From NCBI GenBank assembly GCA_003697085.1, contig RFFU01000074.1, positions 82,600 through 146,599 of the forward strand: a DNA stretch of 64,000 bases, in the 5' to 3' direction. A model generated the notes under the pieces. That model made no database searches, was not told the DNA's origin, and worked only from the letters and a program-made list of their open reading frames with translations. Numbering within the stretch: position 1 is the stretch's first letter; each line of letters begins with the position of its first letter. The position numbers and the translations under genes are program-made. Source of the DNA: Candidatus Hydrogenedentota bacterium. GTDB taxonomy: Bacteria; UBA8481; J006. Shown piece after piece: positions 33,875 through 54,400 of this stretch.

Positions 33875-34011
33875 AGTGACGGAAGGGGAGATTGTCATCA
33901 AGGAAAAGAAAACGAGATTGGTTCAATGCCTCAAAGTTGCTTCGAAGTTGCAGAATGATGGGAATTGGAATTTGGAGGAAGAATCGGGTATCTGGGAAGG
34001 TGGAGTCGGAG

Positions 34012-34317
34012 TCAGGGGTTTTTGAGTTTCTCCTCGACACTGCGGATTTTCGCTTCAATTGATTCGGCGCGGTCGGTGCGCGTTCCCACGCGGATCGTCG
34101 TTGAGATGCGGGGCACGCCCATTCTGTGAACGGCTTCGTGGCAGGCTTTGACGACGCGGAAGACCTCGTCCCACTCCCCTTCGATGTTGGTTCCGTATCC
34201 GTGAAGACGGTACGTCAGACCCGAATCGCGAATGATCCTTTCGCATTCGGCGACATATCTCGAAAGAGAGACACCGACACCGATCGGAACAACACAGAGA
34301 TCGACGATGACTTTCAT
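34012..34317 (-). CDS. MTH1187/YkoF family protein (UPF0045, thiamine/ligand-binding ACT-like)
   Basis: 101 aa. MKVIVDLCVVPIG...YVAECERIIRDSGLTYRLHGYGTNIEGEWDEVFRVVKACHEA matches the YkoF/MTH1187 family. Confidence 0.8.
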   Translation of the reverse strand: MKVIVDLCVVPIGVGVSLSRYVAECERIIRDSGLTYRLHGYGTNIEGEWDEVFRVVKACHEAVHRMGVPRISTTIRVGTRTDRAESIEAKIRSVEEKLKNP

Positions 34318-34390
34318 AGAATATATTTTCTCACCTTTCCTCCCGGTAAAAAAGAAAAAAGAAGATATTCACTTTCGAAAAACGCCTTGT

Positions 34391-35413: not shown

Positions 35414-35463
35414 AGTCTCATCCTGGTTCTCACCGCTATATCTTCAAACCTCATCATTCAAAA

Positions 35464-35476
35464 TGCAACGTTTGCA
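35464..35476. promoter_or_regulatory. candidate LacI-family operator (TGCAACGTTTGCA, near-palindrome with a CG centre)
   Basis: It lies 50 bp upstream of the LacI-family gene start, in the divergent region shared with the ABC transporter operon. It fits the LacI/GalR/CcpA operator consensus TGnAAnCGnTTnCA except for one missing base in the left half. Confidence 0.4.
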
Positions 35477-35867
35477 CTTTTTTGAGGATTGACGTGTTCC
35501 GGGTCCTTTCCGGCCCTTCGAACCGCAGTGTTTTCAAGGCGGAACACACAAAAATCCCCATTGCAACAATCTTTAATAGTAAGATGAGAGAAAAACAAGA
35601 AAAAAATGAAATTTAGGGAAGAACCAGGAAGGGAGGGCGATGTGACGCGGAACGATTCTCCTCTCATTTGATTTCACGGCGTTGAGGAGCCGGGATTCTC
35701 GATGACAGAAGATCGGGAAGGCCGCGCGGTGGCGTGCCGTTACAAAAAGAAATGATTCTGGCCGATATCCGAGACATTGAATAATATTTTTAGAGGAATT
35801 AAAACGTGCCAAGTAAAAAATACTGGAAGAGGTTCAGGTAAACGAATAAAATCACGGTGAGAGGGAA

Positions 35868-38531
35868 ATGGAACCCGGCGAGGACGTAAATTTAGGGAAC
35901 GAGCGTTGGCGCGCGTGGCAGATTCTGGGGTGGATCGGAATTGCTTTGGTAGCCTGTATTGTACTTCTCTTTGGTTCCCATAAAGAAACCGTTGTGGAGA
36001 AGGGCGTTGTCCTTCACTTGAAGGAACGTCCCGAGTTTAGTTACGACAATTTGGAAGTCCGCGCGGAAAAAGCGGTTTTTAAGGAGTTCATTAGAAGACA
36101 TCCGGAAATTACGCTTCGGAATACCTCGGACCTAAAGGTGCCGAATACGCCGAGCACCGAGCTGCTTTCCATCGCCGGCAACATCGCACCGGATGTCTTT
36201 CGCGTCTCCTTTTCCCAGATGCGGAGTTATATTGAAGAGGGCTTTGTCGCCGATATTACTGATGATTTGGACACGGAATATCGCAGGAATATCCCGGAGA
36301 AGATATGGAAGATTGCGGAGAAGGAGGGGCGCTATTACGGAATTCCCGCGGAGTATATGAACGCAGGATTGATTTACAACAAACAACTCGTTGCGGAAGC
36401 CGGGTTGGATCCTGAAAAGCCTCCCCAAACATGGGAGGAACTCTTTTATTGGGCGCAAGTGTTGACGGATCGGGACAAGATTATGCATTGGGGGGATAAA
36501 ACTTTGGTTGGGCGATGGGGACTGGGTTGGCTGCTGGGGGAAGCGATCGAAGATCGAAATTTTACGACGACGGCGGGAGAATTTTTCGCGAATTTGGTGT
36601 GGCAATATGGCGGAAAAATGGCTGTCGAAAAGGACGGGAAATACAGGGTGTCCTATGCCTCACCCGCCGGAAAAAAAGCTCTGGATCTGATCTGGAAATT
36701 CAAATGGGCACACTGGTTCAAGGATGAACAGGGCCGCGTTATTACGTTGCGGGATGCCTCCGGAAATGTGGTGGTGACCCGGGACCAGTTTGAAAAACTC
36801 GCCGCCCGTGGACCGTACAGAGACGAATACGGCCAAAAGTGGGATTTGCGAAAATTGGATTCGGAAAGAAGAATTATTCGCGGCGTGATCAATGGTAGCG
36901 CTTCCGGCGAAGAGGCCTTAGGAGGAACGAGTCGAGGGTTCGTGCTCTTTGCCGTGGGCGCCGAACGCTGCGCAATGGCGATCGGCTATCCGCGTAGAAA
37001 TTTGGTCAAAATGGTCCAAGGATACGGCCATAAGGACCTCTATGGTTTCGCCCCTTTGCCCGTCGTCAAAGGGGGAAGGCCTGCTAACATGGTTCGCGGT
37101 TTTGTTTATGCCGTGAATGCTCAGATTCGGGATCCGAAGATTCGAAAGGCGGCCGTAGAGTACATCAAATTCCTCTGCTCTGAAGAAGCGAATCGAATGC
37201 GGACGGAACAGTACCTCGCGGAGGACTGGGGTATCCTTGTCCGACCGGATTGGCTTAGAAAATTCGGGTACAACGATGTCTATGAACAGATTCCAAAGGA
37301 ATGGCGGGAGTCCTATCAAAAGATGATGGCGCATTCCCGTTTGGCTCCGCTCTTTGGAAAATACGCCCAAATCCAGTCGAACGAGCTCAAAGAACCGCTC
37401 CAAAGGATTCTGTTGGCGGATGCGGAAAAGCCGGATTTGATGCGGTTGTTGAAAACTTCCGAAAAACGGGCCAATACGATGGTGTTGGGAATGCGCGATC
37501 CAAAGGATATGGCCCGGAAACGACGGATCGCGATAATTGTGCTTTCGTTGGCCGTGTTGGTAATCGGCTTTATCGTTGTTCGGTATTTGAGAGAGCTGAC
37601 TCAGGCCTATTCTTCGGACACGGGGCCGGCCGCCGTCAGCGGCCGGAAAGGGGGGTGGACACATCACGTCGGAGCATGGATTTTCTTGATTCCGGCAGTT
37701 CTGACTATACTTCTTTTTCAGTACTATCCACTCCTTCGCGGCTCGGCGATGGCATTTTATGATTGGAAACTCCTGGGGCCGAAAACTTTTGTAGGACTCG
37801 ATAATTTTATCGAGGCCTTCAGCCAACCGCTCTTTTATAAGGTGGTCAAGAATACTTTGTATTACGTCGGGCTTACAATGTCCCTTGGATTTGTTGCACC
37901 GGTGATTCTCGCTATTCTCCTCGCGGAGGTCCCCAAGGGGAAGATATTCTTTCGTGTCATTTACTATATCCCGTACGTGACGACTGGGCTGGTTATTCTT
38001 TTTCTCTGGAAGATGCTTTACTATCCGGGAGAGAGCGGCTTTCTGAATACGTTGTTGGCCCATTTCGGTCTGGGCCCCTATCGCTGGCTTGAGGATCCGA
38101 AACTTGCGATGATTTGTGTTGTACTTCCGGGAATTTGGGCCGGTGCCGGTGCCGGATCGATAATTTATCTTGCAGCTCTTGCAGGAATCCCTGAAGAAGT
38201 TTATGAAGCAGCGGATCTTGACGGGGCCGGAGTCTTTGACAAGATCATCAAGATTACAATTCCGTTTCTCAAACCTTTGTTGATTATTAATTTCGTCGGG
38301 GCGTTTATCGGGGCGTTTCACGCGTCCGCCAACATATTAATGATGACAGGAGGAGGTCCGCTTAATGCAACGAATGTTTTGGGAACGGAGATTTTCATTA
38401 AATCGTTTATCTATTTGAAGTTTGGTTATGCTACCGCGCTCGCCTGGATCCTCGGAGCGTTCCTTATCGGATTTACACTGCAGCAACTAAAGATTATGAA
38501 GAATCTCGAATATCGTACGACGGGGAAATAG
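35868..38531 (+). CDS. carbohydrate ABC transporter component: fusion of a solute-binding protein domain with a MalF/UgpA-type permease
   Basis: N-terminal TM anchor, then an extracytoplasmic SBP-like domain of about 500 aa (family-1 SBP-like). A TM segment (IAIIVLSLAVLVIGFIVV) is followed by a 6-TM permease with the EAA loop EAADLDGAGVFDKIIKITIPFLKP. The 887-aa ORF is continuous. Confidence 0.8.
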   Translation: MEPGEDVNLGNERWRAWQILGWIGIALVACIVLLFGSHKETVVEKGVVLHLKERPEFSYDNLEVRAEKAVFKEFIRRHPEITLRNTSDLKVPNTPSTELLSIAGNIAPDVFRVSFSQMRSYIEEGFVADITDDLDTEYRRNIPEKIWKIAEKEGRYYGIPAEYMNAGLIYNKQLVAEAGLDPEKPPQTWEELFYWAQVLTDRDKIMHWGDKTLVGRWGLGWLLGEAIEDRNFTTTAGEFFANLVWQYGGKMAVEKDGKYRVSYASPAGKKALDLIWKFKWAHWFKDEQGRVITLRDASGNVVVTRDQFEKLAARGPYRDEYGQKWDLRKLDSERRIIRGVINGSASGEEALGGTSRGFVLFAVGAERCAMAIGYPRRNLVKMVQGYGHKDLYGFAPLPVVKGGRPANMVRGFVYAVNAQIRDPKIRKAAVEYIKFLCSEEANRMRTEQYLAEDWGILVRPDWLRKFGYNDVYEQIPKEWRESYQKMMAHSRLAPLFGKYAQIQSNELKEPLQRILLADAEKPDLMRLLKTSEKRANTMVLGMRDPKDMARKRRIAIIVLSLAVLVIGFIVVRYLRELTQAYSSDTGPAAVSGRKGGWTHHVGAWIFLIPAVLTILLFQYYPLLRGSAMAFYDWKLLGPKTFVGLDNFIEAFSQPLFYKVVKNTLYYVGLTMSLGFVAPVILAILLAEVPKGKIFFRVIYYIPYVTTGLVILFLWKMLYYPGESGFLNTLLAHFGLGPYRWLEDPKLAMICVVLPGIWAGAGAGSIIYLAALAGIPEEVYEAADLDGAGVFDKIIKITIPFLKPLLIINFVGAFIGAFHASANILMMTGGGPLNATNVLGTEIFIKSFIYLKFGYATALAWILGAFLIGFTLQQLKIMKNLEYRTTGK

Positions 38532-38535
38532 AGCG

Positions 38536-40854
38536 ATGCCAATCATTGCCAAGGTCGGCCGGAAGGATATCGGGGTTCGCTTTACGATTCTTGCCATTTA
38601 CCTGCTGTTGATCTTGGGAGGGATTACGATGGTGTATCCCTTCCTCCTAATGGTGAAAATTTCAATTTCATCCAAAATGGACAATGATGATTATGGATTG
38701 CCCCGCTTTCTTTACGATGAAAACCTCCTGATGGCGAAATACTTGAATGAAAGGCATTCCTACTGGACTGGGCCGATGGCGTTACGTTACCACCGTGACT
38801 ACGGCATCTGGAAAGATCTGATAACTCCTGTAGCTCAAAAAGTGTATCCGCTGGATGACTCCACCCGCGTTGATCGGATTCGAAAAGCTGCGGAAAAATT
38901 GAAAAACGATTTGGAGGCACGGATTCATCCGAAAGACCAAAGGTTGATTACCGCGAAAAACCTGATACTGAGTCATCTTCAACGTATTTTGGCGAGAAAA
39001 ACGCCTTATGACGACCCTCTTCTCACTCGGCTCTTTGAAAGAAATTATGTGGAATTGGGGGAAAGGCTGGGCGAAATAAGGGATCCGAAACATTCGTCCG
39101 TTCTCCGGATTATTCGAAAGGATATCAAGAATCTCGAAGCGTTACGTTCCCCGAAATTCGATCTGAATGACAAGAAGGTGATGGCGGATGTTCAACGGTT
39201 GGGAATTGAGTGGCTGAATTATAAAAAGACGCTTCCGTTGGAATTGAAACAAGTGAATTTTATGAACTACAGTAACAATGGGAAAAACCAACGGGCGTTT
39301 CAGGAGTTTGTTAAGAAAAAATACGGAGGGGATATTTCGAGGGTAAATCGAATTTACGAGGACGGTGTCACCTATTTTTCGGAAATTCTTGCCCCTCATG
39401 GAGGCAGTATCTTTGGTGTGGTCCGTTCTCGTTATTCTGCGAAGGATCGAGATTGGATCGCGTTTAATAAAACGTTGAAGGAAGAGGAATTCTGTGTCCG
39501 TTACTGGGAGGGAAATGAAGCGCGTTGGGGGGAATTTTTTGCCGATCAAGTGAAACGTTATGCCCTGAAAAATGCTCCGGAGAAGTACCATCGATGGGAG
39601 GCCTATTTCAATACGGAGTACAGCGTGGAAGCCATCAACGATATTTTGGGGACCTCTTTTATTCAGGCAAGTTGTCTCTCGCTTCCACTCCCTGACAAAG
39701 GATTGCTGAAAAATAGAGTCGTTCGCGGTATATGGAAAAGGTTTCTTCTGGAAAATCGGGAAAATCTCAATTTCCTCAGGATCAACGTTACAAAGAAACT
39801 TCAGGAGCGGTTTTCGGAATATCTTCAAAAAAAATATGGAACCGTCTCGCGGCTTAATCGGGTATTGTCCCGGGAATTGTCAGAGGGGGGGACGAAGTTT
39901 CGGAGGTTTGAAGATTATGAATTGGCCGCCAATCGCCCGTTGGAGACGATGGCGATGCGGAGAGATTGGGATGAATTTGTGCGGACTCAGTGTCCTATTG
40001 AATATATTCAATATTATTCCTACGAGGCGCGGTGGCGGGACTACCTGAGACAAAAATACGCGAAGATTGAGAACTTCAATAAAACTCTTAAAACACGGCG
40101 TTACCGGTCGTTCTCAGAGGTTCCAGCCCCCTTTGCAGAATATGACCTCTATGATTATCTCAAGCATAGAAAAGGGTTGCGTTGGCGTTTTGTATGGGCG
40201 AATTATCGGTATGCCTTGGATCGCCTCTTCTTTAATGGAAGGGCGGCCTATAATACTCTTGTCCTCGTGGCCTTATCCCTGTTTACTGCGCTGACGGTGA
40301 ATCCGCTTGCGGCTTATGCACTTTCGAGATTTCGTTTGAGTTACGCCCATAAAGTTCTCCTTTTCTTTTTGGCGACGATGGCGTTTCCCCCCGAGGTGAC
40401 GATGATTCCGAATTTCCTTTTGATAAAAGAATTGGGCCTCCTGAACTCGTACGCGGCTCTCGTGCTTCCCGGGATGGCGAATGGCTTTTCAATCTTTCTT
40501 CTGAAAGGGTTCTTTGACAGTATTCCGTTGAGTTTGTATGAGGCGGCAGAGCTTGATGGGGCCAACAATTTTCAAATGTTTTATAAAATCACACTTCCCT
40601 TGTCGAAACCTGTCTTGGCCGTCATTGCGTTGAACACGTTCATGTATGTCTACGGAAGCTACCTGTGGGCGTTGCTGATTTGTCCGGCCAGAAAATTTTG
40701 GACGATTATGGTTTTTGTTACACAATTTCAACAGGTGCAACTTCCTCATCAAACAATGGCGGCGTTGGTCCTGGCTGCATTGCCCCCCTTGATTGTCTTT
40801 GTGCTTTGCCAAAAGGTGATTATGCGCGGGATTGTCATTCCCCAGTCGAAGTGA
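38536..40854 (+). CDS. carbohydrate ABC transporter permease (MalG/UgpE-type) with a ~480-aa periplasmic insertion after TM1
   Basis: The C-terminal 270 aa are a canonical permease with the EAA motif YEAAELDGANNFQMFYKITLP. The N-terminal TM FTILAIYLLLILGGITMVYPFLLMV is followed by a long helical, Trp/Tyr/Arg-rich domain that is not recognisable. Confidence 0.8.
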   Translation: MPIIAKVGRKDIGVRFTILAIYLLLILGGITMVYPFLLMVKISISSKMDNDDYGLPRFLYDENLLMAKYLNERHSYWTGPMALRYHRDYGIWKDLITPVAQKVYPLDDSTRVDRIRKAAEKLKNDLEARIHPKDQRLITAKNLILSHLQRILARKTPYDDPLLTRLFERNYVELGERLGEIRDPKHSSVLRIIRKDIKNLEALRSPKFDLNDKKVMADVQRLGIEWLNYKKTLPLELKQVNFMNYSNNGKNQRAFQEFVKKKYGGDISRVNRIYEDGVTYFSEILAPHGGSIFGVVRSRYSAKDRDWIAFNKTLKEEEFCVRYWEGNEARWGEFFADQVKRYALKNAPEKYHRWEAYFNTEYSVEAINDILGTSFIQASCLSLPLPDKGLLKNRVVRGIWKRFLLENRENLNFLRINVTKKLQERFSEYLQKKYGTVSRLNRVLSRELSEGGTKFRRFEDYELAANRPLETMAMRRDWDEFVRTQCPIEYIQYYSYEARWRDYLRQKYAKIENFNKTLKTRRYRSFSEVPAPFAEYDLYDYLKHRKGLRWRFVWANYRYALDRLFFNGRAAYNTLVLVALSLFTALTVNPLAAYALSRFRLSYAHKVLLFFLATMAFPPEVTMIPNFLLIKELGLLNSYAALVLPGMANGFSIFLLKGFFDSIPLSLYEAAELDGANNFQMFYKITLPLSKPVLAVIALNTFMYVYGSYLWALLICPARKFWTIMVFVTQFQQVQLPHQTMAALVLAALPPLIVFVLCQKVIMRGIVIPQSK

Positions 40855-40924
40855 TCGCCGGAACATAAACGAATACAACTTTCGAGGGGAAAAGGGGGAT
40901 TTTTTGAAAAAAAAGGAGGAAACG

Positions 40925-42004
40925 ATGGTTTCGGAAAATAGGTCTTTTATGGAAAACCTGGCTGTCTTGAAAAGGGCAAGAACCCGTTCCATCAGTCCAG
41001 AGAATTTTTCCGGGGAGAAAGGAAAGGGCGGAATGGCCACGGAAGGAACGGGTAAAGAATGTGCACGTGATTTAGGACAGGGCTGGAAGATATCACCGAG
41101 TGTTGTGATTGGTTCGGGGACCACGTTTGTGTTGGCCGAAATAGAAGGTCCCGGGGTGATTCAGCAGATTTGGCTTACGCCAACCGGGAATTGGCGCCAT
41201 CAAATCCTCCGGATTTTCTGGGATGATCAAGAAGTTCCGTCGGTTGAATCGCCCGTGGGGGATTTTTTCGCTATGGGGTGGGGGAGATTCGCCCCGATTT
41301 CCTCGTTGGCTGTCTGTGTTAATCCGGGAAGTGCCTTCAATTGTTATTGGGCGATGCCATTTCGAAGGAAATGTCGCATTACTTTGGAGAATATTTCGGA
41401 GGAGGATGTTGTTCTTTATTATCAGATTAACTATTCATTGGAGGATGTTTCCGAAGAGTGCGCGTACTTTCATGCGCAGTTTCGTCGCACGAATCCCCTG
41501 CCCTATAAACAGGTTTATACCATTTTAGACGGTGTCCGCGGCCGCGGACATTATGTGGGGACTTATATGGCCTGGGGTGTCAATAACAATGGATGGTGGG
41601 GGGAAGGGGAGATTAAGTTTTATTTGGACGGGGACGGGAAATTTCCAACGATTTGCGGAACCGGAACGGAGGACTACTTTTGCGGTTCCTATAATTTTGA
41701 AAACCGTGAGACGAAACAGTACCAGGAGTTTTCGACACCTTATTCCGGCTTGCACCAGGTAATTCGTCCCGACGGCGTCTATCAGTCTCAAACGCGTTTT
41801 GGGCTCTATCGCTGGCATCTTGTTGATCCGATCCGTTTTGAACAGGATCTGCAGGTTACCATACAAGCGTTGGGATGGCGAGGAACATCGGGGCGTTACC
41901 TTCCGCTCCAGGATGATATCGCTTCCGTGGCGTATTGGTATCAGACTTTACCGACGGCTCCTTTTCCGAGACTCCCAGACAAAGATTACCTGGAGGTGAT
42001 ATGA
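40925..42004 (+). CDS. DUF2961 family protein (glycoside hydrolase family GH172-like)
   Basis: About 360 aa with a beta-rich composition. Blocks GPGVIQQIWLT, YYQINY and GTGTEDYF are recalled from DUF2961/GH172 proteins. The ATG at 40925 is preferred over the ORF-track start at 40832. Confidence 0.55.
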   Translation: MVSENRSFMENLAVLKRARTRSISPENFSGEKGKGGMATEGTGKECARDLGQGWKISPSVVIGSGTTFVLAEIEGPGVIQQIWLTPTGNWRHQILRIFWDDQEVPSVESPVGDFFAMGWGRFAPISSLAVCVNPGSAFNCYWAMPFRRKCRITLENISEEDVVLYYQINYSLEDVSEECAYFHAQFRRTNPLPYKQVYTILDGVRGRGHYVGTYMAWGVNNNGWWGEGEIKFYLDGDGKFPTICGTGTEDYFCGSYNFENRETKQYQEFSTPYSGLHQVIRPDGVYQSQTRFGLYRWHLVDPIRFEQDLQVTIQALGWRGTSGRYLPLQDDIASVAYWYQTLPTAPFPRLPDKDYLEVI

Positions 42005-42007
42005 ACC

Positions 42008-44227
42008 TTGAGGGCGGGCTCGGCCTATCCAAGTAGAGAAGAACACGGAAGTCCGGAGGCGATTGTTCTCGAAGACGAACGATTGACGTTCCTTGCGGCG
42101 ATTCCGTCACTTGGGGAAGAACCACCCCATTTTGTTCGCGGGGAAGAGGAGGGGTGGAAGAATTTGAGGTTTGCCTGGGATCTCCGGGAGCCCGTGCAAC
42201 AAGATTCACTGGAGGTCGTGTTTACGCTTCAGGGATTGATAAAGTTTTTCCGGGGCGCCGCATCTTGTCCCGTGTGACGGAAACTGTATTCCCCGCGAAG
42301 TGTTTCGGTCTCCAGCACTTATTGCGGGGGACGGGACGGCCATCGTAGCGCTTGTGCCGGATTTGCAGGTCTGTGAACGATATCCCTTGCGGCCGTGGTT
42401 TCTCGATGTGGATGCTTCCGAGCAGAAGTTTGTATTTGGGATTTCCCGAGCGGAAACTGAGGGGCATGTGGGCTTTCGGAAGGTAGGGGGCACGGTATTC
42501 CCGAAGGGGAGAACGGAAATCGGCTTTTATTGGAGGGGATTTCGTGTCAAAGAAGGCATTAAAGACCCTTGGGAAGCGGTAAGCCGGTTTTTATGGCGGA
42601 AATATGGCCGGCCTCTTTTTCAACAGGGCCAACCGTCTAAGATTCCGTTGGACCGCTATGTTGAAACGGCGTACGGGTGGGCCTTTAACCGGTGGGAAAA
42701 GATCGTTTGGCGGGAATTTCAAATGGGAGAAACAAAGGTCGGAGCCTGTCGCCTGATCGTCACCGCAAGCGATTCGCCGAATTCACCGGGAAAACGTCCT
42801 TCGTGGGAGAAAGATTCGATCTGGAATCAAGCGTGGTTCAGCTCATTGCGGAGCGCATCGGGACTTTACCGGTATGCGCGCCGTACCGGCAATGTGGCTT
42901 TGAAGGAAAGAGCATGTATGACGAAGGAATTGGCGCTTTCGGCCCCTCAGAGGGCGGAGGGAATCTTTCCTTCCGTGTTTCTGGCGAGTGATCGATATTC
43001 CGAAGACGGAGTGCAATCGTGGGAGGAGGGGCGCTGGAGTAATTCGGATCGGGTCCCCGCTGAGCGCGGAATAACCAGGGAATGGTATCATGTATTGGAC
43101 ACCTCATGGACGGCTTTACAGGTGGTGCGATGGTACCGGGAATTGGAAGGAGATGAACGACTGCTCCGATATGCAAAACGGTATGCGGATTTCCCACTTG
43201 AGCGTCAAGAGGAGAAGGGCTTTTTTCCGGCTTGGTTGCATCCTGAAACTCTCGAACCAGCAAAGATTCTTTTCGAATCGCCGGAAACGTCGTTGAGTGT
43301 AACTTTCCTTTTGGAGTTGGCCGATCAGAAAACTGGGAGGGGTGAAGCCTATCGGAAGGCGGCGCTAAAAGGGATGGATGCCGTGATCGATGAAATTATT
43401 CCGGACGGTCGCTGGGAAGATTTTGAAACATATTGGTCCTGCAGTCCTTTTGGAAGAGAAGAATATTATGGTAAAAAGATCGAGCGTAGTGGAATGTATA
43501 AGCAGTGAAATTTGTCGATGTACTGGACAGCGGAAGCGTTGTTGAAGTGCTTTCGCGCTACCGGGGAAAAGAAGTATCTTCTCTGGGGGGAAAGAACAAT
43601 TCACGAACTGAGTATGACACAGCAGATTTGGCAACCTCCCTTTGTTGCTGTTCCGACGTTGGGAGGCTTTGGAGTGATGAACTTTGACGGAGAATGGAAT
43701 GATGCTCGCCAGAGTCTCTTTGCGGAGTTGTTTCTCGATTACTATCGGGTGACAGGAGAGGCGGAATTGTTTGAAAGAGGCGTGGCCGCCTTAAAGGCCG
43801 GATTCATCATGATGTACTGTCCAGAGAATCCCGCGGTGAAAAAATGTATGAAAAAGCCCATCCATTTTTTGGAAGAGAAGATTACGGTTTTATGATGGAA
43901 AATTTCGGACATTTTGGAATCTTGACCCCTCCTGAAAAGGGCATCGGAAATTTTACTCTTTACGATTGGGGACCGGGTTCTGCATGTAAGGCGTGGTGTC
44001 GAATCAGAGACCATTATGGGGATGCCTACGTGGACCTCGGACGCAATCGTGCCTTTGGTATTAATTCTGTATCGGTAGATCTGGATAAGAGAAATATTTT
44101 GGTCCGTGATGCTTCTGTTGGGACCGACGGGCGGTCGCGCGATATCAAGGTCGTTTTCAGCGATGGAAAGGAGAGAAACATTGAATTGCCTCGGGAAGGA
44201 AAAGTAGAAATTCCAAAGGCGATTTAA
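42008..44227 (+). pseudogene. disrupted ~740-aa putative glycosidase-like gene: pieces in frames 2, 0, 0 and 2, joined by two homopolymer-associated frameshifts and one in-frame TGA
   Basis: ORFs 42008..42277, 42300..43508 (open from 42243), 43512..43895 and 43844..44227 read as one continuous protein-like sequence. Junctions are at the T5 run near 42245-42249, at an in-frame TGA at 43506-43508 (aag cag TGA aat), and at the A6 run near 43839-43844. Confidence 0.55.
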
Positions 44228-44789
44228 AAATTGGCCGAGAGTGTGGAATAACCGAACGGTTTATCAGCCTGGAAGGGAGGCGATCGGAGGAGAGAGGGCG
44301 GCGGGGGTCGGAAGCGCGTGTCAGAATACAAGGATAAGCGGAAGAGAGGGCTGTAAATACAGGTGCTTTTTCAATGAGATCGTTTTTCGACGATAAAGCA
44401 AAAGCGGCAGTACGGGCGGCCGGAAGAAAAGAGAAGAAGGAAGGCACGGGGGCGAAGAGGGGGTCGGATTCAGTGTAAGCAGGCTTGAAAATTACGGCTC
44501 TTGTGCGGCAAAGCAAAATAATCTTTACATTAGAACGATTTAAATATTAGATAAAGAATATTTGTGTGGGCAACCGAGAGACGACGGGGTCCCCCCAAGG
44601 CCCCGTATTTTGGGAAGGAACCACTGGGCAAGGAGGGGAAGCGCGGCCGGGCGCTATACGGGGGAGGTTTTGCAAAGCGGATGCGGTTCCGCGCCTCGCG
44701 CGGGTGCCGGCAGAACGTGGGACTGGAAAGGTGTATCTGCGGGACGGTCTGTAAAGCGGCTGGCGTCGATTGATGAAAAGGAGGATGGG

Positions 44790-46253
44790 ATGGTGAAAAG
44801 CGGGATTAAGGTCGGGATATTGACGTTTGGTGACGGGCGGGATTTTTTGGCGGAACCATTGCGTGAGGTCAACGAGCATTTTCTGAGACAACTTTCGCGG
44901 AGGTTGGAGGATTCCGGACACGAAGTTATCACCGGCACCGAGGTCATCTGGCGGAATGAAATCGCCGTTCGTGAGGCGAAGCGGATGGCGGCGGCCGATG
45001 TTGACGTCGTCATTTACAATTATTCCGTCTGGGCATGGCCGCAGTATGCGCGGTTGGCCGCGCAGTTTCTCCCGCAGCCTGTGATACTCTTTTCGAATGT
45101 GAATCCTGAAAAACCGGGTTTGGTCGCCATGCTTGCGCACGCGGGGTCTTTGGATCAGGTGGGGATTTCGTTCTGCAAATTATTTGGTGACATAATGCAG
45201 AACGAGGTTCTTGAGGCTGTCAACAGGAAGATTAACGCCATTGCCGCGAAGACGCGTTTGAGGGGAAAGACATTCGCGCTGATCGGTGGGCGTTCCCTGG
45301 GGATCGACACGACGGTTTCGGATCCGGCTCTTTGGATGAAACTGTTTGGTATTGATGTGGATCACGTCGACCAGTTTGAGGTTTACCGGCGTGCGGAGGA
45401 GGAGTGTCGGAAAGGGGAGCGTGTAAATGCGGCTCTGGACTATTTGAAAAAGAAGGTACGAAAGATTCATTGGACGAAGCCGGATGCACAGATGAGGCTG
45501 ACCGAGGACCTTCTTCGGAAGCAGTTGGGAATGTATTACGCCGTTTACGATCTCTGTGAGGAGTTCAATTACGACTTCTGCGGTATCAAAGGCCAAAGGG
45601 AGATGACGGAGCATTACGCAACCGCCGATGTGGCGGAGGCCTTTTTGAACGATCCGTATGGTCCTGAGGGGGAGCCAAAGCGAGTGATCGTCTGTTCCAC
45701 GGAAGCGGATATGGACGCGGCATTGACGATGCAGGTTCTGCATCACCTTTCGGGAACGCCGGTGCTTTTCGCCGACGTCCGACATTATCACCAGGACGTG
45801 GGTGTGTGGGATCTCTGCAACTCCGGGCAGCATGCGACCTACTTTGCAGGTAAGTCTTTTGATCCGGAGGTCAACCTGGCGAAGACGGAGTTTCGACCGG
45901 AAGGGTTTTACTTTCCCGCCGGCGGCGCCGCCGTCTTCCATATCGCCCATCCCGGGAAGATGACCTTGGCTCGGTTGACGCGGGGGGGGGACACGAATCG
46001 GTATCGGATGACCTTTTTCACGGGCGAGTGCAAGGACTTCGGCGAGGAGAAGAATATGGCCCTGGCCGAAGGAGTTCAGGACAATTGGCCGCATGCATTT
46101 TTGGAATTTTCCTGTTCGATGCGGGAGTTTATTGACAATTTTCACTGCAATCATATTCACGCGGTATACGGCGATTATCGTGAAGAATTGCGTGAGTTCT
46201 GTCGTTGCTCCGGTATCGAAGCCGTCGAATTGGGCCTCTCCGGAAAGAAATGA
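44790..46253 (+). CDS. L-fucose isomerase family sugar isomerase (FucI/D-arabinose isomerase-like, short form)
   Basis: GILTFGDGRD (compare FucI GIRPVIDGRR) and LFADVRHYHQDVGVWDLCNSG (compare FucI VFADVRTYW). 487 aa from the ATG at 44790, with an AAGGAGG RBS 5-13 nt upstream. The ORF-track frame extends upstream with junk-like translation. Confidence 0.75.
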   Translation: MVKSGIKVGILTFGDGRDFLAEPLREVNEHFLRQLSRRLEDSGHEVITGTEVIWRNEIAVREAKRMAAADVDVVIYNYSVWAWPQYARLAAQFLPQPVILFSNVNPEKPGLVAMLAHAGSLDQVGISFCKLFGDIMQNEVLEAVNRKINAIAAKTRLRGKTFALIGGRSLGIDTTVSDPALWMKLFGIDVDHVDQFEVYRRAEEECRKGERVNAALDYLKKKVRKIHWTKPDAQMRLTEDLLRKQLGMYYAVYDLCEEFNYDFCGIKGQREMTEHYATADVAEAFLNDPYGPEGEPKRVIVCSTEADMDAALTMQVLHHLSGTPVLFADVRHYHQDVGVWDLCNSGQHATYFAGKSFDPEVNLAKTEFRPEGFYFPAGGAAVFHIAHPGKMTLARLTRGGDTNRYRMTFFTGECKDFGEEKNMALAEGVQDNWPHAFLEFSCSMREFIDNFHCNHIHAVYGDYREELREFCRCSGIEAVELGLSGKK

Positions 46254-46268
46254 GGAGGATTGAAAGGA

Positions 46269-47930
46269 ATGAGTGAGCCTGTCTTCAGCATAGGAGTTGA
46301 TTACGGGACAAACGCGGTTCGCGTTTTGGTGGTGCGGTGCGATACAGGCGAGGAAATCGGTGCAGCGGTCTACGATTACAAGCATGGTGAAAAGGGGATA
46401 TTGGCGGGGAAAGGGGAAATGCACCTGGCGCGTCAGAGTCCCCGTGATTATATCGACGGACTGAACGAGGCCTTGGGGAAGGCTCTGGCTCAGGCAGATG
46501 GCGCCGAGGCCTTTTCCAGAGAGCGGATCGTCGGTATCGGCGTTTCTGCTACAGCAAGTACTCCGGTGCCCGTGGACAGAGAGGCTGTTCCTTTGGGTGT
46601 ACGGGACGAGTTTCAAGAGGATTTGTCAGCGCAAGCCTGGCTCTGGAAGGACCACACCAGTATAGCGGAGGCGGAGGAGATAGTAGAGGTTGTCAAAAAG
46701 AAGGAATTACCGTATCTGAAATTTTACAGCGGCTTGATGTCTCCGGAGTGGTTTTGGCCGAAGGCGTTGAAGTTTATTCGGTCGGCACCGGAAGTGGTCC
46801 GGAAGGCCACCGCGGCTTGGTTGGAATTGACAGATCTGGTACCGGCTTACCTCACCGGGGTGTCGGTTGCTGATGATGTCGTTCGGGGAATCTGCTCCGC
46901 CGGCTTCAAAGGAATGTACTCAGAAGAGTGGGGAGGGTATCCGCCTAAGGATTTTTTGAAGAACTTTTCGGAAGAAGTGGCGCGATTGGCAGGGAGAAGT
47001 CCGGTTTTCAAGGGCCCTGGGGAGAGTGTCGGATCGTTATCGGATGAGATGGCCTCACGGTACGGATTATCCCGAAAGGTGCAGGTCAGTGCGGGAATCA
47101 TCGATGCTCATTCCGGCGCCTTGGGAAGCGGAGTCGGAGAACGCTCCCTGGTCAGTGTTATGGGGACTTCCTCGTGTAACATCGGTTTGATTCCTTACGA
47201 GCGGTATCGCGGACCGATTCCGGGAATTTCCGGCGTCATCAAAGACGGTGTTGTTCCGGGGATGTATGCTGTTGAATCGGGTCAGGGAGCGGTTGGTGAT
47301 ATCTTTGCTTGGTTTGTCGAACGGATCCTCGGCGGAAGGTGCAGTCACGAAGAACTTACCGAACGGGCGCGGAATATGGGACCCGGTGAGACGGGATTGG
47401 TGGCTCTGGATTGGCACAACGGAAATCGCAATGTTCTGATGGATATGGAATTATCCGGGTTGATCGTCGGACTGCGGCTGGATACGACTGTGGAGCAGAT
47501 CTACCGGGCTTTGATTGAAGCAACGGCTTTCGGGCTGAGGACGATCATCGAGCGAAAAAAGGAATACGGCTATGAAGTGGAGAATTTGATAGCGTGTGGT
47601 GGGATCGCCAAAAAAAACGACCTGGTGTGCCGGATCTACGCGGATGTTCTTGGAGTTCCTGTTCACGTGGCCGGATCGAGCGAGGCGTGTGCGTTGGGGG
47701 CAGCCGTCTGCGGCGCTGTAGCCGGGGGTGCGTTTCAAAGCTTATCGGCCGCTCAGGAGAAGATGGTCCCGAAGGCGCGAGGAAGTTTTGAACCGAATCT
47801 TGGACAAAGGGGAATCTGGGATGAGGTGTATGGGATTTATCGCGATCGTTACGAACATTATTCACGCGGCGGCGGCGGCGGAGACATCATGAAGTCTCTT
47901 TTGGCACTGCGTGACGAAGCGCAAGCGTAA
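46269..47930 (+). CDS. araB: ribulokinase (FGGY carbohydrate kinase family, AraB-type)
   Basis: FSIGVDYGTNAVRVLVVRCDTGEEIGAAVYDY and LWKDHTSIAEAEEI parallel E. coli AraB [23 protein letters not shown] and LWKDHTAVEEAEEI. 553 aa. AGGAGG RBS upstream of the ATG at 46269. Confidence 0.85.
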   Translation: MSEPVFSIGVDYGTNAVRVLVVRCDTGEEIGAAVYDYKHGEKGILAGKGEMHLARQSPRDYIDGLNEALGKALAQADGAEAFSRERIVGIGVSATASTPVPVDREAVPLGVRDEFQEDLSAQAWLWKDHTSIAEAEEIVEVVKKKELPYLKFYSGLMSPEWFWPKALKFIRSAPEVVRKATAAWLELTDLVPAYLTGVSVADDVVRGICSAGFKGMYSEEWGGYPPKDFLKNFSEEVARLAGRSPVFKGPGESVGSLSDEMASRYGLSRKVQVSAGIIDAHSGALGSGVGERSLVSVMGTSSCNIGLIPYERYRGPIPGISGVIKDGVVPGMYAVESGQGAVGDIFAWFVERILGGRCSHEELTERARNMGPGETGLVALDWHNGNRNVLMDMELSGLIVGLRLDTTVEQIYRALIEATAFGLRTIIERKKEYGYEVENLIACGGIAKKNDLVCRIYADVLGVPVHVAGSSEACALGAAVCGAVAGGAFQSLSAAQEKMVPKARGSFEPNLGQRGIWDEVYGIYRDRYEHYSRGGGGGDIMKSLLALRDEAQA

Positions 47931-48438
47931 TCGGTGGAGATTTAATCAATGGAAAAAGAAACCATGAAGAACACCGGAACGCGTTCCATTGTGAGACCTT
48001 TTGCTCGGCCCAGAGATGAAGATAAGAAAGATGTGGGTGGTGTCTTGAGGGGGAAGAGTAGGGGTCGGGAGATCGGCGTGAAAGGCGGATCCGAACGGTG
48101 TTTGAGATGACGTGTTTTTACAAAAATAGAAGAGAAGCAAAAGGCGAAAAAGGGAATCATCCGAAATGATATCGAGGAAGGATTAAGAATAAAGAATTTT
48201 TTTGGTGTTCGGAGAACCGATGCGCGAATATTTTCGGAGAACATCCGGCCTCTTCGAGGTCCCGTTCCGCCGTCGATACCGGGTCGTATCGATTTGGAGC
48301 AGCCCCCAGCCCAAGGAGCAACCGGATGTCCGCTCGTTCGACAGCGTTTCGTGAGGGTCAGGGCGTATACATTGCGTGTACGGTTTATTTAGAGATGTAT
48401 AAATAAATGCTTTTAATGAGACTTGAAATTTCGGTTGA

Positions 48439-51400
48439 ATGATGTTAATCTTTTTATTTAAGATGGTGAAAAAGAGAAAAAGAGCAACACCTGCTTTTAT
48501 AAGTACCTGGTGTTGGCCGTGCGCCCTGGTGTCCTTTCTTCTCGGAAACTTGATTTTTGGTGTCGCGCCTCCGGCTCGTGCCGCGATAGAAGTCTTCAAT
48601 ATTACGCCGACGATTGTGAAGGCGGGAAGCGGGGCGCCGATAATTATTTCGGGGCAGAATTTTTCCTCGACAACGCCGGTGAAAATCGGTGACAAACCTG
48701 TGTCCCCGGTGGTGTATCTCAATTCGCATACGCTCAAGGTCTCGGTACCGACCTCGCTTGACTCAGGTGTCTATTCGATTACGGTGGGTTCGGGGGCGGA
48801 TTCCGCGACGCTCGTGAATCCGCGGCTCCACGTGCTTTCTTTCGCGGCGGAGGTGGCCTATATCGCCGGAGGGAACGACACCCTGGCTGTCGTCAACCTT
48901 GATGACGGCTCGATCATTACGACCGTGTCGATGCCGGGAATCCTTGGAGGTTCCAACCAGCTTCCTGTTGGAATGGCGGCCGCCCCGGACGGAAACAAGA
49001 TTTTTATCGCCTCCTTTGATGGGGCGTTTCCCAGAAAAATTTACGTGTTTTCGACCGTTTCGAATACTATTGTGGATGAGATTTCCGTCAGTGATCCGGT
49101 TCGGATCCGTATGTTTCCGGGGGGAGAAACATTGGCGGTCATCAGTAATGATCCACCGAATAATGTTCACTTCTTTCGGTTGTCGGATACGACGGAAGTG
49201 TACAGTGGCGGGAGCGTCAGCTGGAACGGCACCGATCTGGCGATGCATCCATCCGGAAAGTACTTTTATGCCATCTATTCAAGTGGAAGCTATATTTCTG
49301 TCATTGATGCCAGGGATGGAACGACGGTGGACAGCATCTCTGTTACTTACAGTGGTGTCGGACCGCATTTCTTGACGATCTCGCCGACGGGGGATTCTCT
49401 GTATGTCAGTTTTTCGGAACAGAATGCGTTCGCGGCGGTGGGGCTAACCGACACGGGGATGATTCGAGGAGACACCGCGGTGATTCCGAAGGCGACGGGG
49501 GTGATGAACAATGCCGTGATGGTAATGAATCTGGATGGAACAAAGCTCTTTTATGGCGGGAATCGGGTTGCGTCGTATGGGGTTACGAATCTAAAGACGG
49601 GAGTCGCGTCGACGATTACAGGAACTTGGAATAATACGAATGGATCTGCAAGGAGTTCCGATGGTCAATACATCTGGGCGACGAATTATTCGACGGAAAC
49701 ATTGAACAAGATTCGAATTTCGGATGATGTCGAGGAAAGTACGATAGACATCACGTCGGCAGGGGGGATCGGAGGGATGGGAATTCTTACGCTGCCGCGA
49801 GTGATTCCGATGAACGATTCGATGATACCGTATATTCAATCGGTATCGCTTTATGTTCCCGTAGGCGGCGAAGTGACGATCAACGGTTTTTTTGACAGTG
49901 CGTCACACTATGGTTTCACCTCCACGGATACGGTTTGGATTGGAGGAATTCCGGTGGAGACAATGACGGTTCTCGGCCAAACTCTGATCAAGGCGACGTT
50001 ACCGTCGTCGATCCCCGCTGATACAGTGGTGGATGTTCTGGTCAAGAATGTCGTTTCGGGCATGACGTCCGATTCTCTTGGGTTTCAACCTCAGGATACG
50101 GTGACGGTGACCGGGCCGGCGCCGACGATTACGGCGATCGTTCCTGACAGCGGTTATTCTGGGGCCGTTACGCCGGTGACCATCACGGGGACCAACTTTG
50201 ATCCGGTGTTGACAAAAGCCTATATTGAAGGAACGGAACTGGCGAACGTAACCTATGTGTCACCAACGCAACTTACAGCGGAGATTCCCAATGGACAAAG
50301 TCCAGGAGTGCACAACATCAGTGTGGCGAACTATCCGGTAAATGAACAGTGGGATACGCTGTGGAACGCCTTTACGGTCAATCAGACACAGATGGAAATT
50401 TCCGGAGCGCTTCCAAGAAATCCCGTGCTCAAAGGCGACTCCTTTTGGATGTGGATCTACGGTTCAGGTTTCGACACGTCCATGGTTCCGACGGTTACAC
50501 TCGGAGGGGTCGCGCTGAGTCGAGTCAAAGTCCCAAATACCAAGGTGATCACGGCTTTTTATGACGGTGTAACGCCGCTGGCTACGGGATGGAACAACGT
50601 GACCGTGAGTTATGGGGCGTTTCCAGATAGTCAGGCGCAGTTGGTTAATGCTGTCGAGGTTTTCGACAGCGGCGCACAGTACATTTATCTGCTTCCTTAC
50701 CTCGATGCTTCCTCCGATTCCCTGTATGTTGTCGATGTCGCCAAGAATGAAGTTGTCGACACCATAGAAGTAGGAAATGTCGGCTTTGATGGAGCGTTGG
50801 ACATTTCTCCGGACGGAGAATATTTGTTGGTTACGGCGTCCGATGGAAAGACCTTGAAGGTCGTTCGCTTGTCGGACAATACAATTGTTTCAACGAAAAC
50901 GTTTTCACAAGTTGTCACGTGCGGGGTCTTTTCGCAGGATGGTTCGGCTGTTTACGTAGGGTACGCTCCTGTTTCGGCTTCCGCCGCGATCAATAAATAT
51001 TCCTTTCCTGGTTTCTCCCTCTTGAAATCCTATCCGACGTCGGGGTCGGTTCTGGACTTTGTGGCAATCTCCCCGTTGGAAGATTATGCTGCTTATGGTC
51101 GGAAATGGGATCCCACGATGAAACTGATGGATTTATCCACGGGAGCCGAGACGATACTGGCGGGAACATATGTCAACGGTTCGGACCGGGATATTTATTT
51201 TTCTCCGGACGGATCGAAACTCTATGTTACCAGTGTTAACGGGGGAGCGACGACGGATTCGCTCGTCGTCGTCGATGTGGCGACAAACACCGTCCTTTAT
51301 GATACGCTTCTTCCTGTGTTGACGGGGGGACAGAACGGCGCCTACAGCCTCGTGTTTCATCCATCAGGCGACACCTACTTTGTGTCCTCTTTCGGCGGCT

Positions 51401-54400
51401 TTATAGCCTTCGATGCAGCGACAAACAGGTTGCTGGATTCCGCCGCCCTCGGTTCACAATCAGGTGGGATCGATATTCTTCCGGACGGAACACGCGTCTA
51501 CCAAGGGGTATCATCGTGGTCCGGATGGGATGGTTGGATTTACGCACCGGTGACCTATCCGGGGGGAAATGTTTCCTTGGGGACCCCCGTTCACACGGGA
51601 ATCCCGGGTGATATTCGTGTTATCCCCAGGGGGGTGAAATATGTCTTTCGCGGCTTGGTACCGCCGCATCTTACGATTGCTTCTCCGGACAGTGGAATAG
51701 AAAATGAAACGCAGACGATTACGTTATACGGAAGCGATTTTTCTCCTACACCGACAGTATATTTCGGGGGAGTGGTCTCTTCTTCCGTTACCTATGTAAG
51801 CTCGACGGAGTTGACGGTCGTAGCCCCCGCATTAACGGCAGGTACCTATGCTATTCGCATTGTCAATCCGGATCTGGGTGAAAGTACGAAAGACAGCGCG
51901 TACACTGTTTATCCCGCTGCGGCTTTCGTTCCGGACACGGCCTTTGGCAGTTTTTACAAGGATCCTTCCCTAAGGGATTCCGTAAGCCTCTTCGTGCCGG
52001 GTGATACGGTGTATTTTCAAGTGGGGGATACGAACCCCAATACGAATGCGGCGCGGCAGGAAACGTTGACGGTGGTGATCATCACGGCAGAAGGGGACAG
52101 CGCATCCCTCCTACTCTATGAGGATGGGGTCTCTTCGGAGACGTTTACCAGCGAAACCACACCTCTCTTTATCACGGACGATGCGGGGATCGGGGTGAAC
52201 GGGACGGACACCTACCTTTACGCAGTGTCTGGGGACACATTTTTTGTTATTTACTCGGATCCCCAGGACACCTCGGATACCTTCTTCTTGGTCGCGATGG
52301 TTCTTTCAGGGGCATCGGTCGGCGTTGTTTCTCTTGACAACGGTCAATACAGCCTCGATTCAACCGTAACGGCCACGGTAATCGACACCGACCAGAACAA
52401 GAACGCGGTACTGGCGGAGACGGTGACAGTTCGGTTGGTGTCGGAGGTCGGAAACGACACGGAATGGCTTATTTTGACGGAGACAGGGAACAACACCAAT
52501 GTTTTTGACAACAGTGGTGCTCCGGTTGCGCTTTCGGATACGACGGGGGCCGATTCGGGTTACGACGGAATTTTGAGGGTCGGGGGGGCGGACACGATCC
52601 ACCTTTTTTACGCGGATCAGTCCGGTAATATTGAAACTTCGGCGGTGACTGTCCCGCGGCAAACCGCTTCTTCGGTCGCATTTGCTTTATCGGAGTACCG
52701 TATTGACTCTTCCGTCACGGTTACGGTGACGGACCCGGACGAGAATCTGAATCCGACGGTAAAGGATCAAGTCCTGGTTTTCTTAACGGAGTTATCGACA
52801 GGTGATACGGAAACGGTGACGTTGACGGAGACGATGGACACGTCGGGAGTCTTTGTCTCGGTGGCAGGTGTCTTTCTTTCTGACACCTACGGGGCGGATT
52901 CGGGCCAGGACGGCGTTCTTCTCTGTGGAGATGCCGATTCGATTCAGGTTCTGTACTGGGATCGAAATTTTTCGGCTGCGGCAGACACGGCGGTGGATAC
53001 GACGAGTGTCTTTTTCAACTCCGGAGCGGGGACCGTGACGTTCATGGCTGTTAATGAGGAACTGGCTATAGGAAGCGAATCCATCGTTATTGTTGTATAT
53101 GATAGAGATGGGAACAAAAATCCGCGCCTCCAGGACAGTGTCTATGTTGAAGTAACCGTTGACGGGACAGCACGGGACACCGAACACCTTGTTCTTTACG
53201 AAACGGGAGATACGACGGCGACGTTTTCGGATTCGGTGGTCGGCTTGGTGTCGCCGCTGAAATCCCAAGAAAACGAAACAGGGACAGCCGACAACGGAAT
53301 CGTCGAGTGGTTGGTTGGAGATATTTTGCGTGTCACATATAGAGATTCCGACGGCGTCAGCCCAGCGGTTCAAGATACGGTTACAGGGGTTTCGTCGGCC
53401 TCGATCGGAAGTTTTTTTGGGATCAAGCTCGTGTACGAACTGGACTCCGCGGTCCTGATCGGTCTCTCGGATACGGATCAAAATCGGAATCTTTCCGCAT
53501 CCGAGACTGTCGAAGTTGTCGTCTTCGATGAGTCGTCGAATGATACCGAGATCGTTGTCCTGACAGAACGTGGAGTAGATTCCTGGTTGTTTGATAACAG
53601 CGGATCGTTGTTGAAATTATCAGACACCTCCGGCGGCGTAGTAGAGAATGATGGAATTCTTTTGGTAGGTGTGGGTGACACGATCCATTTCCGTTACCAG
53701 GATCAATCAGGTTTAATCGATACAACGACGACGACATTATCCCGGCAGACGCTTGCTTCGGTGTCCTTTTCGGTTTCGGAGTATCGAATTGATTCACGAG
53801 TGGTGGGAATAACCGTTTCGGATGCGGACGAGAATTTGTCCCCGCGCCGGAAAGATGTTGTAAAAGTTCTCCTGCGCAGCAATCTTTCCGGCGATACGGA
53901 ATATGTGCTTTTGGAAGAGACGACGGAGACGTCGGGTGTCTTTGTCGACACTGCCGGAGGCGTTCGTCTTTCCGACACGACGGGAAGGCTCTCTCCGTGG
54001 GACGGCGTGATTCTGGCGGGAGCGCCGGACAGCATCACCGTTACTTACGTTGATGAAAACAATGACGCCCTCGCGGACAGTGCCGTCGATAGTGTGACGG
54101 TTCTTTTTTATCCTGGTGCTGCGTCTGTAATCATTGATTCTTCCAACGGAGTCATTCAGACAGGTGCGGAATCTCTGGTGATTTTCGTCTTCGACAGGGA
54201 TCAAAATGCCGATCCGACGGTTCGGGACACGGTATTTGTTCTGGTGACGTTGGATACGCGTTATGCGGACACGGAATATCTTATTCTTCGCGAGACAGCA
54301 GAGACCTCCGGGATTTTCTCGGATTCCATTGCAGGGATCGTTAGGGCTCTGAGCACTGAGAATAATGCTGTTGGAACAGTAAACGACGGCGTTCTGCAGA

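Follow-up and report, generated by a model that had tools for sequence, protein, structure and literature searches.

We examined a 64-kb stretch of DNA (the window) from a Candidatus Hydrogenedentota metagenome-assembled genome (MAG) that carries a candidate arabinofuranoside utilization cluster on the plus strand at positions 35868-47930, with a divergent gene for a LacI-family repressor upstream. The cluster contains two genes of a sugar ATP-binding cassette (ABC) importer, a gene of glycoside hydrolase family 172 (GH172), a disrupted gene, and genes for a FucI-family isomerase and a FGGY-family kinase. An earlier sequence-only reading had named the last four elements, and all four were located where it had placed them or a few bases off. 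Our negative results on gene content hold for this 64-kb stretch. The assembly was compared with a separately assembled Logan contig (SRR7905022), which covered positions 32945-52004 at 99.984% identity without gaps; the three mismatches (33643, 34462 and 38649) fell outside the genes of interest.

The GH172 gene (40925-42004, plus strand) is preceded by an AGGAGG ribosome-binding site and encodes a 359 amino acid (aa) protein with no signal peptide, a candidate exo-alpha-D-arabinofuranosidase. The protein matched Pfam DUF2961 (PF11175) from one end of the profile to the other (positions 1-235 of 235; 323 bits vs a cut-off of 27, E=1.3e-96), and the precomputed domains GH172_1st, GH172_dom and GH172_2nd were also observed. 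The best structure was PDB 8IC8, ExoMA1 (E=5.8e-139, 466 bits, residues 10-358 against 5-353), with 60.3% identity over 350 columns, and the gene previously described as GH172-like is a full-length ExoMA1 homologue that passes the hidden Markov model (HMM) threshold. Other solved GH172 structures scored far lower, with 148 bits for alphaFFase1, 130 bits for BACUNI_00161 and 115 bits for DgGH172c. ExoMA1 is an intracellular exo-alpha-D-arabinofuranosidase of Microbacterium arabinogalactanolyticum that is specific for alpha-D-arabinofuranose (alpha-D-Araf), has weak fructofuranosidase activity, is inactive on p-nitrophenyl (pNP)-alpha-L-Araf, and falls in one clade with DgGH172a in a published phylogeny (PMC10509167). 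The acid/base and nucleophile of alphaFFase1 are Glu270 and Glu291 (PMC8605356); E227 (WWGEG) and E249 (GTGTEDYF) of the window enzyme aligned with these two residues, and D250 aligned with D292. Asn253 of ExoMA1, which is Gly299 in alphaFFase1, blocks the 1-hydroxymethyl group of fructofuranose (PMC10509167), and N257 of the window enzyme (...FCGSYN) aligned with this Asn (...FGGAWN).

The isomerase gene (44790-46253, plus strand) encodes a 487-aa aldose-ketose isomerase of the FucI superfamily, which we propose as a D-arabinose isomerase belonging to a short clade. The Pfam domains Fucose_iso_N1, N2 and C were matched with 71, 54 and 122 bits, each over its cut-off, while the protein failed both FucI equivalog models (NF008220, 88 bits vs 775; TIGR01089, 76 vs 850) and is shorter than their ~590 aa. 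Matches in the PDB were to L-fucose and D-arabinose isomerases only, and with a family profile the best match was the D-arabinose isomerase 3A9R (1.4e-24). No AraA family was found in NCBIfam or Pfam at E<=0.001, and PDB searches returned no AraA chain either, at E<=0.01 or, when the profile was used, at E<=0.001, in agreement with the earlier assignment to the FucI family rather than to AraA; the protein did not group with L-arabinose isomerases. The FucI residues E337 and D361 aligned with E305 and D329, both invariant in the clade, and an invariant C-terminal N454-H455-x-H457 aligned with the NH motif of 3A9R. The window isomerase thus has in common with E. coli FucI (1FUI) and the Bacillus pallidus D-arabinose isomerase (3A9R) the superfamily, the catalytic Glu and Asp and the C-terminal His motif, but it is ~100 residues shorter (487 vs 591-595 aa), shows weak similarity to them and falls in a separate, highly conserved clade. 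FucI enzymes also isomerize D-arabinose, and FucI is the classical D-arabinose isomerase. More than 2,700 database proteins fall in the clade (~485 aa), with 63-72% identity across Sumerlaeota, Phycisphaerae, Acidobacteriota and others; the closest metagenome relative, in locus L087, was 72% identical.

Directly downstream, the kinase gene (46269-47930, plus strand) encodes a 553-aa AraB-type FGGY ribulokinase, the proposed source of D-ribulose-5-phosphate. Its likely start is 46269 rather than 46260, as indicated by the Logan gene call and an AGGAGG site. The protein passed the NCBIfam model NF003154 'ribulokinase' (552 bits vs 428), and its best PDB match was the Bacillus halodurans ribulokinase 3QDK (322 bits), which upholds the earlier AraB-type designation. 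It scored 479 bits against the cut-off of 583 for the L-ribulokinase model TIGR01234, and a preference for L- over D-ribulose, or the reverse, cannot be read from the sequence. Scores were far below the cut-offs for FucK (61 bits vs 471), XylB (133 vs 380) and TIGR01315. The window kinase and AraB (3QDK; NF003154) are both full-length FGGY kinases, but the window gene is not linked to araA or araD. E. coli AraB is said to phosphorylate D- and L-ribulose with similar efficiency, reportedly in work by Lee, Gerratana and Cleland from 2001.

The GH172 gene lies downstream of the importer, as had been noted before. The first importer gene (35868-38531, plus strand) encodes an 887-aa subunit of unusual design, in which a transmembrane (TM) anchor, an extracytoplasmic sugar-binding domain and a MalF/UgpA-type permease form one chain. 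Pfam SBP_bac_1 was matched at residues 68-210 and BPD_transp_1 at 679-867, an NCBIfam UgpA/MalF-like model was matched at 604-877, and the hydropathy profile showed a TM segment at 19-37 followed by about six from residue 554 onward. The second gene (38536-40854, plus strand) encodes a 772-aa MalG/UgpE-type permease (BPD_transp_1 at 604-765, UgpE/MalG-like at 573-767) with TM1 at residues 16-34 and an extracytoplasmic repeat insert of ~530 aa between TM1 and TM2. The AlphaFold2 model of this insert was all helical (predicted local distance difference test score, pLDDT, 76.5), and no PDB fold match to it was found at E<1. We found no ATPase gene for the importer in the locus; the ATPase would be encoded elsewhere in the genome. 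The same pair of fused and long-loop genes was observed in other metagenomic organisms (L168:5522-9992 and L169:5539-10295), where other glycosidases adjoin it (in L169 these are GH38, GH20 and GH130). For the long-loop permease we found no more than 32 homologues.

We compared the cluster with 82 isomerase loci (80 metagenomic loci and two exact look-ups) and with 80 loci carrying the family of the disrupted gene; related loci numbered 166 in all. A FGGY kinase was observed in 22 of the 82 isomerase loci, usually immediately downstream, and GH172 in 6-7 of the 82. The commonest families among 134 proteins encoded within ~2.2 kb of the isomerase were BPD_transp_2 (13) and ABC_tran (9) proteins of ribose-type ABC transporters, GH172 (6), BNR_2 (6), Peptidase_M55 (4) and SorC regulators (4). 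In a Phycisphaerales MAG (locus L085) the gene order was solute-binding protein, permease, permease, GH172, isomerase (67% identical), FGGY kinase, GH127-like and GH38, which is the window cassette with a conventional transporter. GH172 followed by the isomerase was also observed in L097 and L102, and a 71%-identical GH172 accompanied the isomerase and an AraB-type kinase in L149/L150. Kinases were AraB-type in most loci (e.g. L150:12032-13705, L024:1268-2959, L115:11439-13076), while the L085 kinase (L085:9470-11134) is a TIGR01315 pentulose kinase (643 bits vs 409), a non-orthologous displacement within one conserved cassette. The characterized members of TIGR01315 are D-ribulokinases, and the displacement therefore suggests that the loci have ribulose in common as an intermediate. 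In 6-7 loci (e.g. L115:8698-9942) a BNR_2 protein (~414 aa, a sialidase-like beta-propeller) was encoded 18-199 bp upstream of the isomerase; it had a very weak DUF4185 match (E=0.009) and may be a further glycosidase that supplies this isomerase.

Two published D-arabinan loci provide the closest comparisons. The Microbacterium locus contains an ABC transporter, enzymes of GH172, GH116 and GH183, and 'a putative isomerase and kinase' that would yield D-ribulose-5-phosphate (Shimokawa et al. 2023, PMC10509167). When Dysgonomonas gadei grew on D-arabinan, no other carbohydrate-active protein was as abundant as a 'predicted fucose isomerase' from its D-arabinan polysaccharide utilization locus (PUL) (Al-Jourani et al. 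2023, PMC10115798). The M. arabinogalactanolyticum locus and the window have in common a CUT1-type sugar ABC importer, a cytoplasmic GH172, an isomerase and a kinase. The isomerase and kinase families are unnamed in the text of the Microbacterium paper (PMC10509167), and the likeness of that pair to the window pair is by role only. Microbacterium has four GH183 genes and a GH116 exo-beta-D-arabinofuranosidase, whereas the window has neither and carries the disrupted gene instead; the window also differs in its fused or expanded transporter subunits and in its host, a candidate phylum of Gram-negative type. PUL42 of D. gadei resembles the window in that its GH172 exo-D-arabinofuranosidases occur with the 'predicted fucose isomerase', but it is a Bacteroidota PUL of SusC/D type with three GH172, GH183 genes and a putative GH116.

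The window holds together an importer, a candidate exo-alpha-D-arabinofuranosidase, an isomerase and a kinase, in an order that is kept in L085. From homology and synteny, including the inferred substrates and direction of flux, we interpret the cluster as probably a LacI-controlled operon for the use of alpha-D-arabinofuranosyl oligosaccharides. The binding-protein-dependent ABC importer (35868-40854) would take up short oligosaccharides containing D-arabinofuranose, and the signal-less GH172 enzyme would remove terminal alpha-linked D-arabinofuranose in the cytoplasm with retention of configuration. The short FucI-type isomerase would then convert D-arabinose to D-ribulose, and the AraB-type kinase would convert D-ribulose to D-ribulose-5-phosphate for entry into the pentose phosphate pathway, with no need for an epimerase or aldolase. 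The same isomerase-kinase scheme was drawn for the Microbacterium locus by Shimokawa et al. 2023 (PMC10509167). No AraD/FucA-type class II aldolase or epimerase was found in the window by Pfam scans of all large open reading frames (ORFs), nor in the window or the 166 related loci by tblastn with E. coli AraD, a query that was validated at 527 bits against 1JDI and detects FucA as well. This absence, which the sequence-only reading had remarked on for the window, leaves no gap in the pathway, because the kinase product from D-arabinose, D-ribulose-5-phosphate, is already a pentose phosphate intermediate. An isomerase and a kinase without aldolase or epimerase is the requirement of D-arabinose, and L-arabinose and L-fucose cannot use that arrangement. 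Homology and synteny likewise support the broader suggestion, made earlier, of uptake and catabolism of an oligosaccharide containing arabinofuranose.

The disrupted gene (42008-44227, plus strand) starts 3 nt after the GH172 stop codon and belongs to a family of proteins of ~730 aa. As had been proposed, it is interrupted, and we observed two frameshifts and one in-frame TGA. The first frameshift lies at 42229-42255, where homologue residues 15-61 are read in one frame up to 42229 and residues 70-606 in another from 42255. The TGA (43506-43508) falls in a homologous column that holds Asn in 13 of 24 homologues and Cys in 11. The second frameshift (43835-43856) lies in a stretch rich in A/T homopolymers, with residues 70-606 ending at 43856 and residues 600-719 starting at 43835 in the other frame. 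The gene consequently reads in three pieces, from 42008 to ~42229, from 42255/42300 to 43508, and from 43512 onward in the same frame as the second piece until the last lesion. More than 1,600 intact proteins (710-790 aa), all annotated as hypothetical, were 50-55% identical to the joined translation across 93-99% of its length, and 21 of the 188 residues (11%) that are invariant in 24 homologues were changed. The lesions were identical in the Logan contig. Because TGA is a normal stop codon nearby, 21 of 188 invariant residues are changed and the independent assembly has the same lesions, the gene is a genuine pseudogene. Selenocysteine incorporation or other recoding of the TGA was excluded, given the use of TGA as a stop by neighbouring genes, the two additional frameshifts and the Asn/Cys column. 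Sequencing error is an unlikely cause of the lesions, as the Logan contig shares them yet differs at three other positions, and 11% of the invariant residues are lost.

The AlphaFold model of an intact homologue (P0001; pLDDT 85.5, predicted TM-score, pTM, 0.91) had a beta-sandwich at the N-terminus, an (alpha/alpha)6 barrel and, at the C-terminus, a beta domain. A Foldseek search of the family model against the PDB returned only weak, generic (alpha/alpha)6 matches (query-normalized TM-score, TMq, at most 0.37); the nearest folds were GH76 alpha-1,6-mannanases, GH88 and AGE-family epimerases, a fold-level likeness only at 9-14% identity. No Pfam family matched the window fragments, intact P0001 scored 25.8 against the GH88 cut-off of 26.6, and no PDB sequence matched the pseudogene at E<=1, the ExoMA2 structures 8IC6 and 8IC7 included. 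The family was observed in at least 511 GTDB species from Chloroflexota, Hydrogenedentota, Planctomycetota, Acidobacteriota, Gemmatimonadota and Verrucomicrobiota. Of the 80 fetched loci, 20 had a GH172 gene within 10 kb of the family member, as did 18 of the 59 loci of at least 12 kb; we argue for an enrichment on the ground that 20 kb is only a small part of a genome, rather than from a genome-wide frequency. In several lineages the two genes adjoin directly: they overlap by 4 nt in L054 and are separated by 15 nt in L050 and ~130 nt in L036, compared with 3 nt in the window. A FucI-family isomerase was also clustered with a family member in L024, L050 and L073, and L024 additionally contained an AraB-type kinase and a ribose-type ABC transporter. 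Genes resembling GH127 were recurrent immediate neighbours of the family (4 of 120). A GH127-like gene (beta-L-arabinofuranosidase/aceric-acid-hydrolase-like) was also observed beside the GH172-isomerase-kinase cassette of L085 (L085:11281-13734). We propose that the middle gene of the window encoded a second, uncharacterized (alpha/alpha)6 enzyme of a kind that often accompanies GH172, and that it is dead in this genome.

A number of points weigh against a D-arabinofuranoside operon, and four alternative explanations draw on several of them. No GH183 (DUF4185) endo-D-arabinanase, which accompanies GH172 in both published loci, was found in any large ORF of the window, and no GH116 (subfamily 4) exo-beta-D-arabinofuranosidase was found there either, the sole candidate being the unmatched pseudogene at 42008-44227. 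Because the window has neither enzyme, the organism appears to consume alpha-D-arabinofuranosyl oligosaccharides that it imports after their release, rather than to degrade the polymer; the substrate described as 'D-arabinan-like' in the sequence-only reading holds for such oligosaccharides, while the part that would imply polymer degradation does not. No characterized member of the short FucI clade was found, literature on D-arabinose isomerase and COG2407 gave nothing useful, and only about a quarter of the isomerase loci had an adjacent kinase and fewer than a tenth a GH172; the clade may lack a single function. The kinase type bears on an L-arabinose route, in which the FucI-like protein would be a non-orthologous L-arabinose isomerase, the kinase would yield L-ribulose-5-phosphate, AraD would be encoded elsewhere and the GH172 enzyme would act on an L-arabinose-containing or unrelated glycoside. 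AraB-type kinases are enzymes of the L-arabinose pathway, those adjoining the isomerase in L150, L024 and L115 pass the TIGR01234 L-ribulokinase equivalog cut-off, and the NCBI name of the isomerase clade is 'L-fucose/L-arabinose isomerase family protein'. We nevertheless consider this route quite unlikely. Genes of the ara pathway are usually clustered, and no AraD or FucA homologue was found in the window, in the 82 isomerase loci or in the 80 loci of the pseudogene family. The isomerase is without sequence similarity to AraA, the pentulose kinase of L085 stands in place of the AraB type, and the adjacent GH172 is close to ExoMA1, with its specificity for alpha-D-Araf and inactivity on the pNP-alpha-L-Araf substrate (PMC10509167).

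A different sugar altogether, either from L-fucofuranosides or L-galactofuranosides (of the same C2-C4 configuration) or a pentose such as D-lyxose, D-ribose or D-xylose, would lead to a different ketose phosphate, and this appears improbable. FucI-type active sites do accept both L-fucose and D-arabinose, and members of the isomerase clade are often encoded beside ribose-type ABC transporters, once with RbsD/FucU, and with no glycosidase at all. GH172 genes also occur in fucoidan loci of Planctomycetota (PMC11685898). The kinase scores, however, fell far short of the cut-offs for FucK and XylB, the fitting substrate of a ribulokinase is a pentulose whose primary C5 hydroxyl is free, and use of L-fuculose needs FucA, which was absent from the window and the 166 loci. 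We regard as very unlikely the use of alpha-D-fructofuranosides or difructose dianhydrides, with a GH172 enzyme acting like alphaFFase1 and an isomerase and kinase of a separate monosaccharide pathway that merely adjoins it. The GH172 family does contain alpha-D-fructofuranosidases such as alphaFFase1 (PMC8605356), and one -1 subsite Trp (W298 in alphaFFase1, W252 in ExoMA1) is Tyr256 in the window enzyme, a further point against assigning it the ExoMA1 specificity. The closest GH172 relatives in our locus sets (52-71% identity) carry at the Asn position a small Gly that permits fructofuranose binding, and this residue is not fixed in the clade, which possibly has a broader specificity. Gly-bearing relatives were observed at L149:6810-7973, L150:8036-9199, L054:5812-7047 and L041:9136-10695; the L149 copy has a signal peptide, and the clade therefore includes secreted members. 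Against fructofuranoside use, the window enzyme has Asn as in Araf-specific ExoMA1 (PMC10509167) and scored 466 bits to ExoMA1 vs 148 to alphaFFase1, the GH172-isomerase-kinase order recurs in another phylum, and fructose would need a fructokinase, of which none is present, rather than an aldose isomerase and a ribulokinase. It is most improbable that the operon is a decaying remnant that is no longer functional or expressed, as the pseudogene in its middle might imply. The three lesions, the loss of 21 of 188 invariant residues and the position of the cluster within a 30-kb stretch of lower G+C would accord with decay, but the flanking genes are intact and full length relative to their homologues, with strong ribosome-binding sites and conserved catalytic residues, and the isomerase is still 72% identical to its L087 relative.

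Upstream of the proposed D-arabinofuranoside operon, the LacI-family gene (34391-35413, minus strand) encodes Pfam LacI and Peripla_BP_3 domains, and its product scored below every NCBIfam equivalog cut-off; judging from its position, the repressor likely regulates the operon. A 562-bp non-coding spacer (44228-44789) separates the pseudogene from the isomerase gene and contains no ORF with homologues. Purine-rich runs were present in this spacer, and no convincing promoter consensus was found there (the scan performed no better than shuffles); an internal promoter in the spacer may sustain expression of the isomerase and kinase genes although the gene upstream is dead. A scan of 33800-48600 for consensus promoters and terminators gave fewer sites than shuffled sequences, and no Rfam family was matched in the whole window, the spacer included. 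The G+C content falls from ~0.59 to ~0.50 at ~34,000 and stays low until the window end. This lower-G+C stretch of 30 kb, which may be an acquired island, contains the arabinofuranoside cluster, a giant surface protein, a GH31 enzyme and a GDSL esterase, and its junction at ~34000 was also present in the independent Logan contig, which disfavours an obvious assembly chimera. The giant predicted surface protein (48439-58419, plus strand, 3,326 aa), directly downstream of the kinase, contains TIG domains and beta-propellers, and it could conceivably help to capture the substrate polymer. A second giant predicted surface protein (19478-25543, minus strand, 2,021 aa) had a weak match to a GH2 TIM-barrel and immunoglobulin (Ig)-like domains, and both proteins carry at their C-terminal end a weakly matched sorting domain of Por_Secre_tail/FlgD_ig-like type. 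No Pfam match was found for the ORF at 58416-59588 (390 aa). Elsewhere in the window we observed a GH13 alpha-amylase with a glycogen-binding module (8711-11254), a GH77 4-alpha-glucanotransferase (32372-33874) and a GH31 enzyme (59693-61939).

The locus is probably a reduced-form example, in a new phylum, of the D-arabinofuranoside utilization loci described in 2023, and not a new system. D-arabinofuranose, the rare mirror-image form of arabinose, is a building block of the cell-wall arabinan of mycobacteria and corynebacteria, and it was not until 2023 that the enzymes degrading it were identified, from an actinobacterium and a gut Bacteroidota. The uptake-cleavage-isomerase-kinase cassette of Hydrogenedentota and Phycisphaerales would add uncultured phyla that live in sludge, sediment and soil to the users of D-arabinofuranose, and suggests that its carriers scavenge the necromass of acid-fast bacteria. 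The linkage of the (alpha/alpha)6 family to GH172 is the most novel lead, and the short FucI clade is the other. Rather doubtfully, the pseudogene family could be an unclassified glycoside hydrolase family working with GH172 while, in parallel, the short FucI clade serves many uncultured phyla as their main D-arabinose isomerase. One option under this proposal is that the family substitutes for the GH116 exo-beta-D-arabinofuranosidase, in which case it would possibly remove beta-linked or otherwise GH172-resistant furanosyl caps. If the short FucI clade does have this role, D-arabinose would be a commoner environmental carbon source than has been assumed. The short FucI-clade isomerase and the GH172-neighbouring (alpha/alpha)6 family provide two uncharacterized targets with thousands of homologues.

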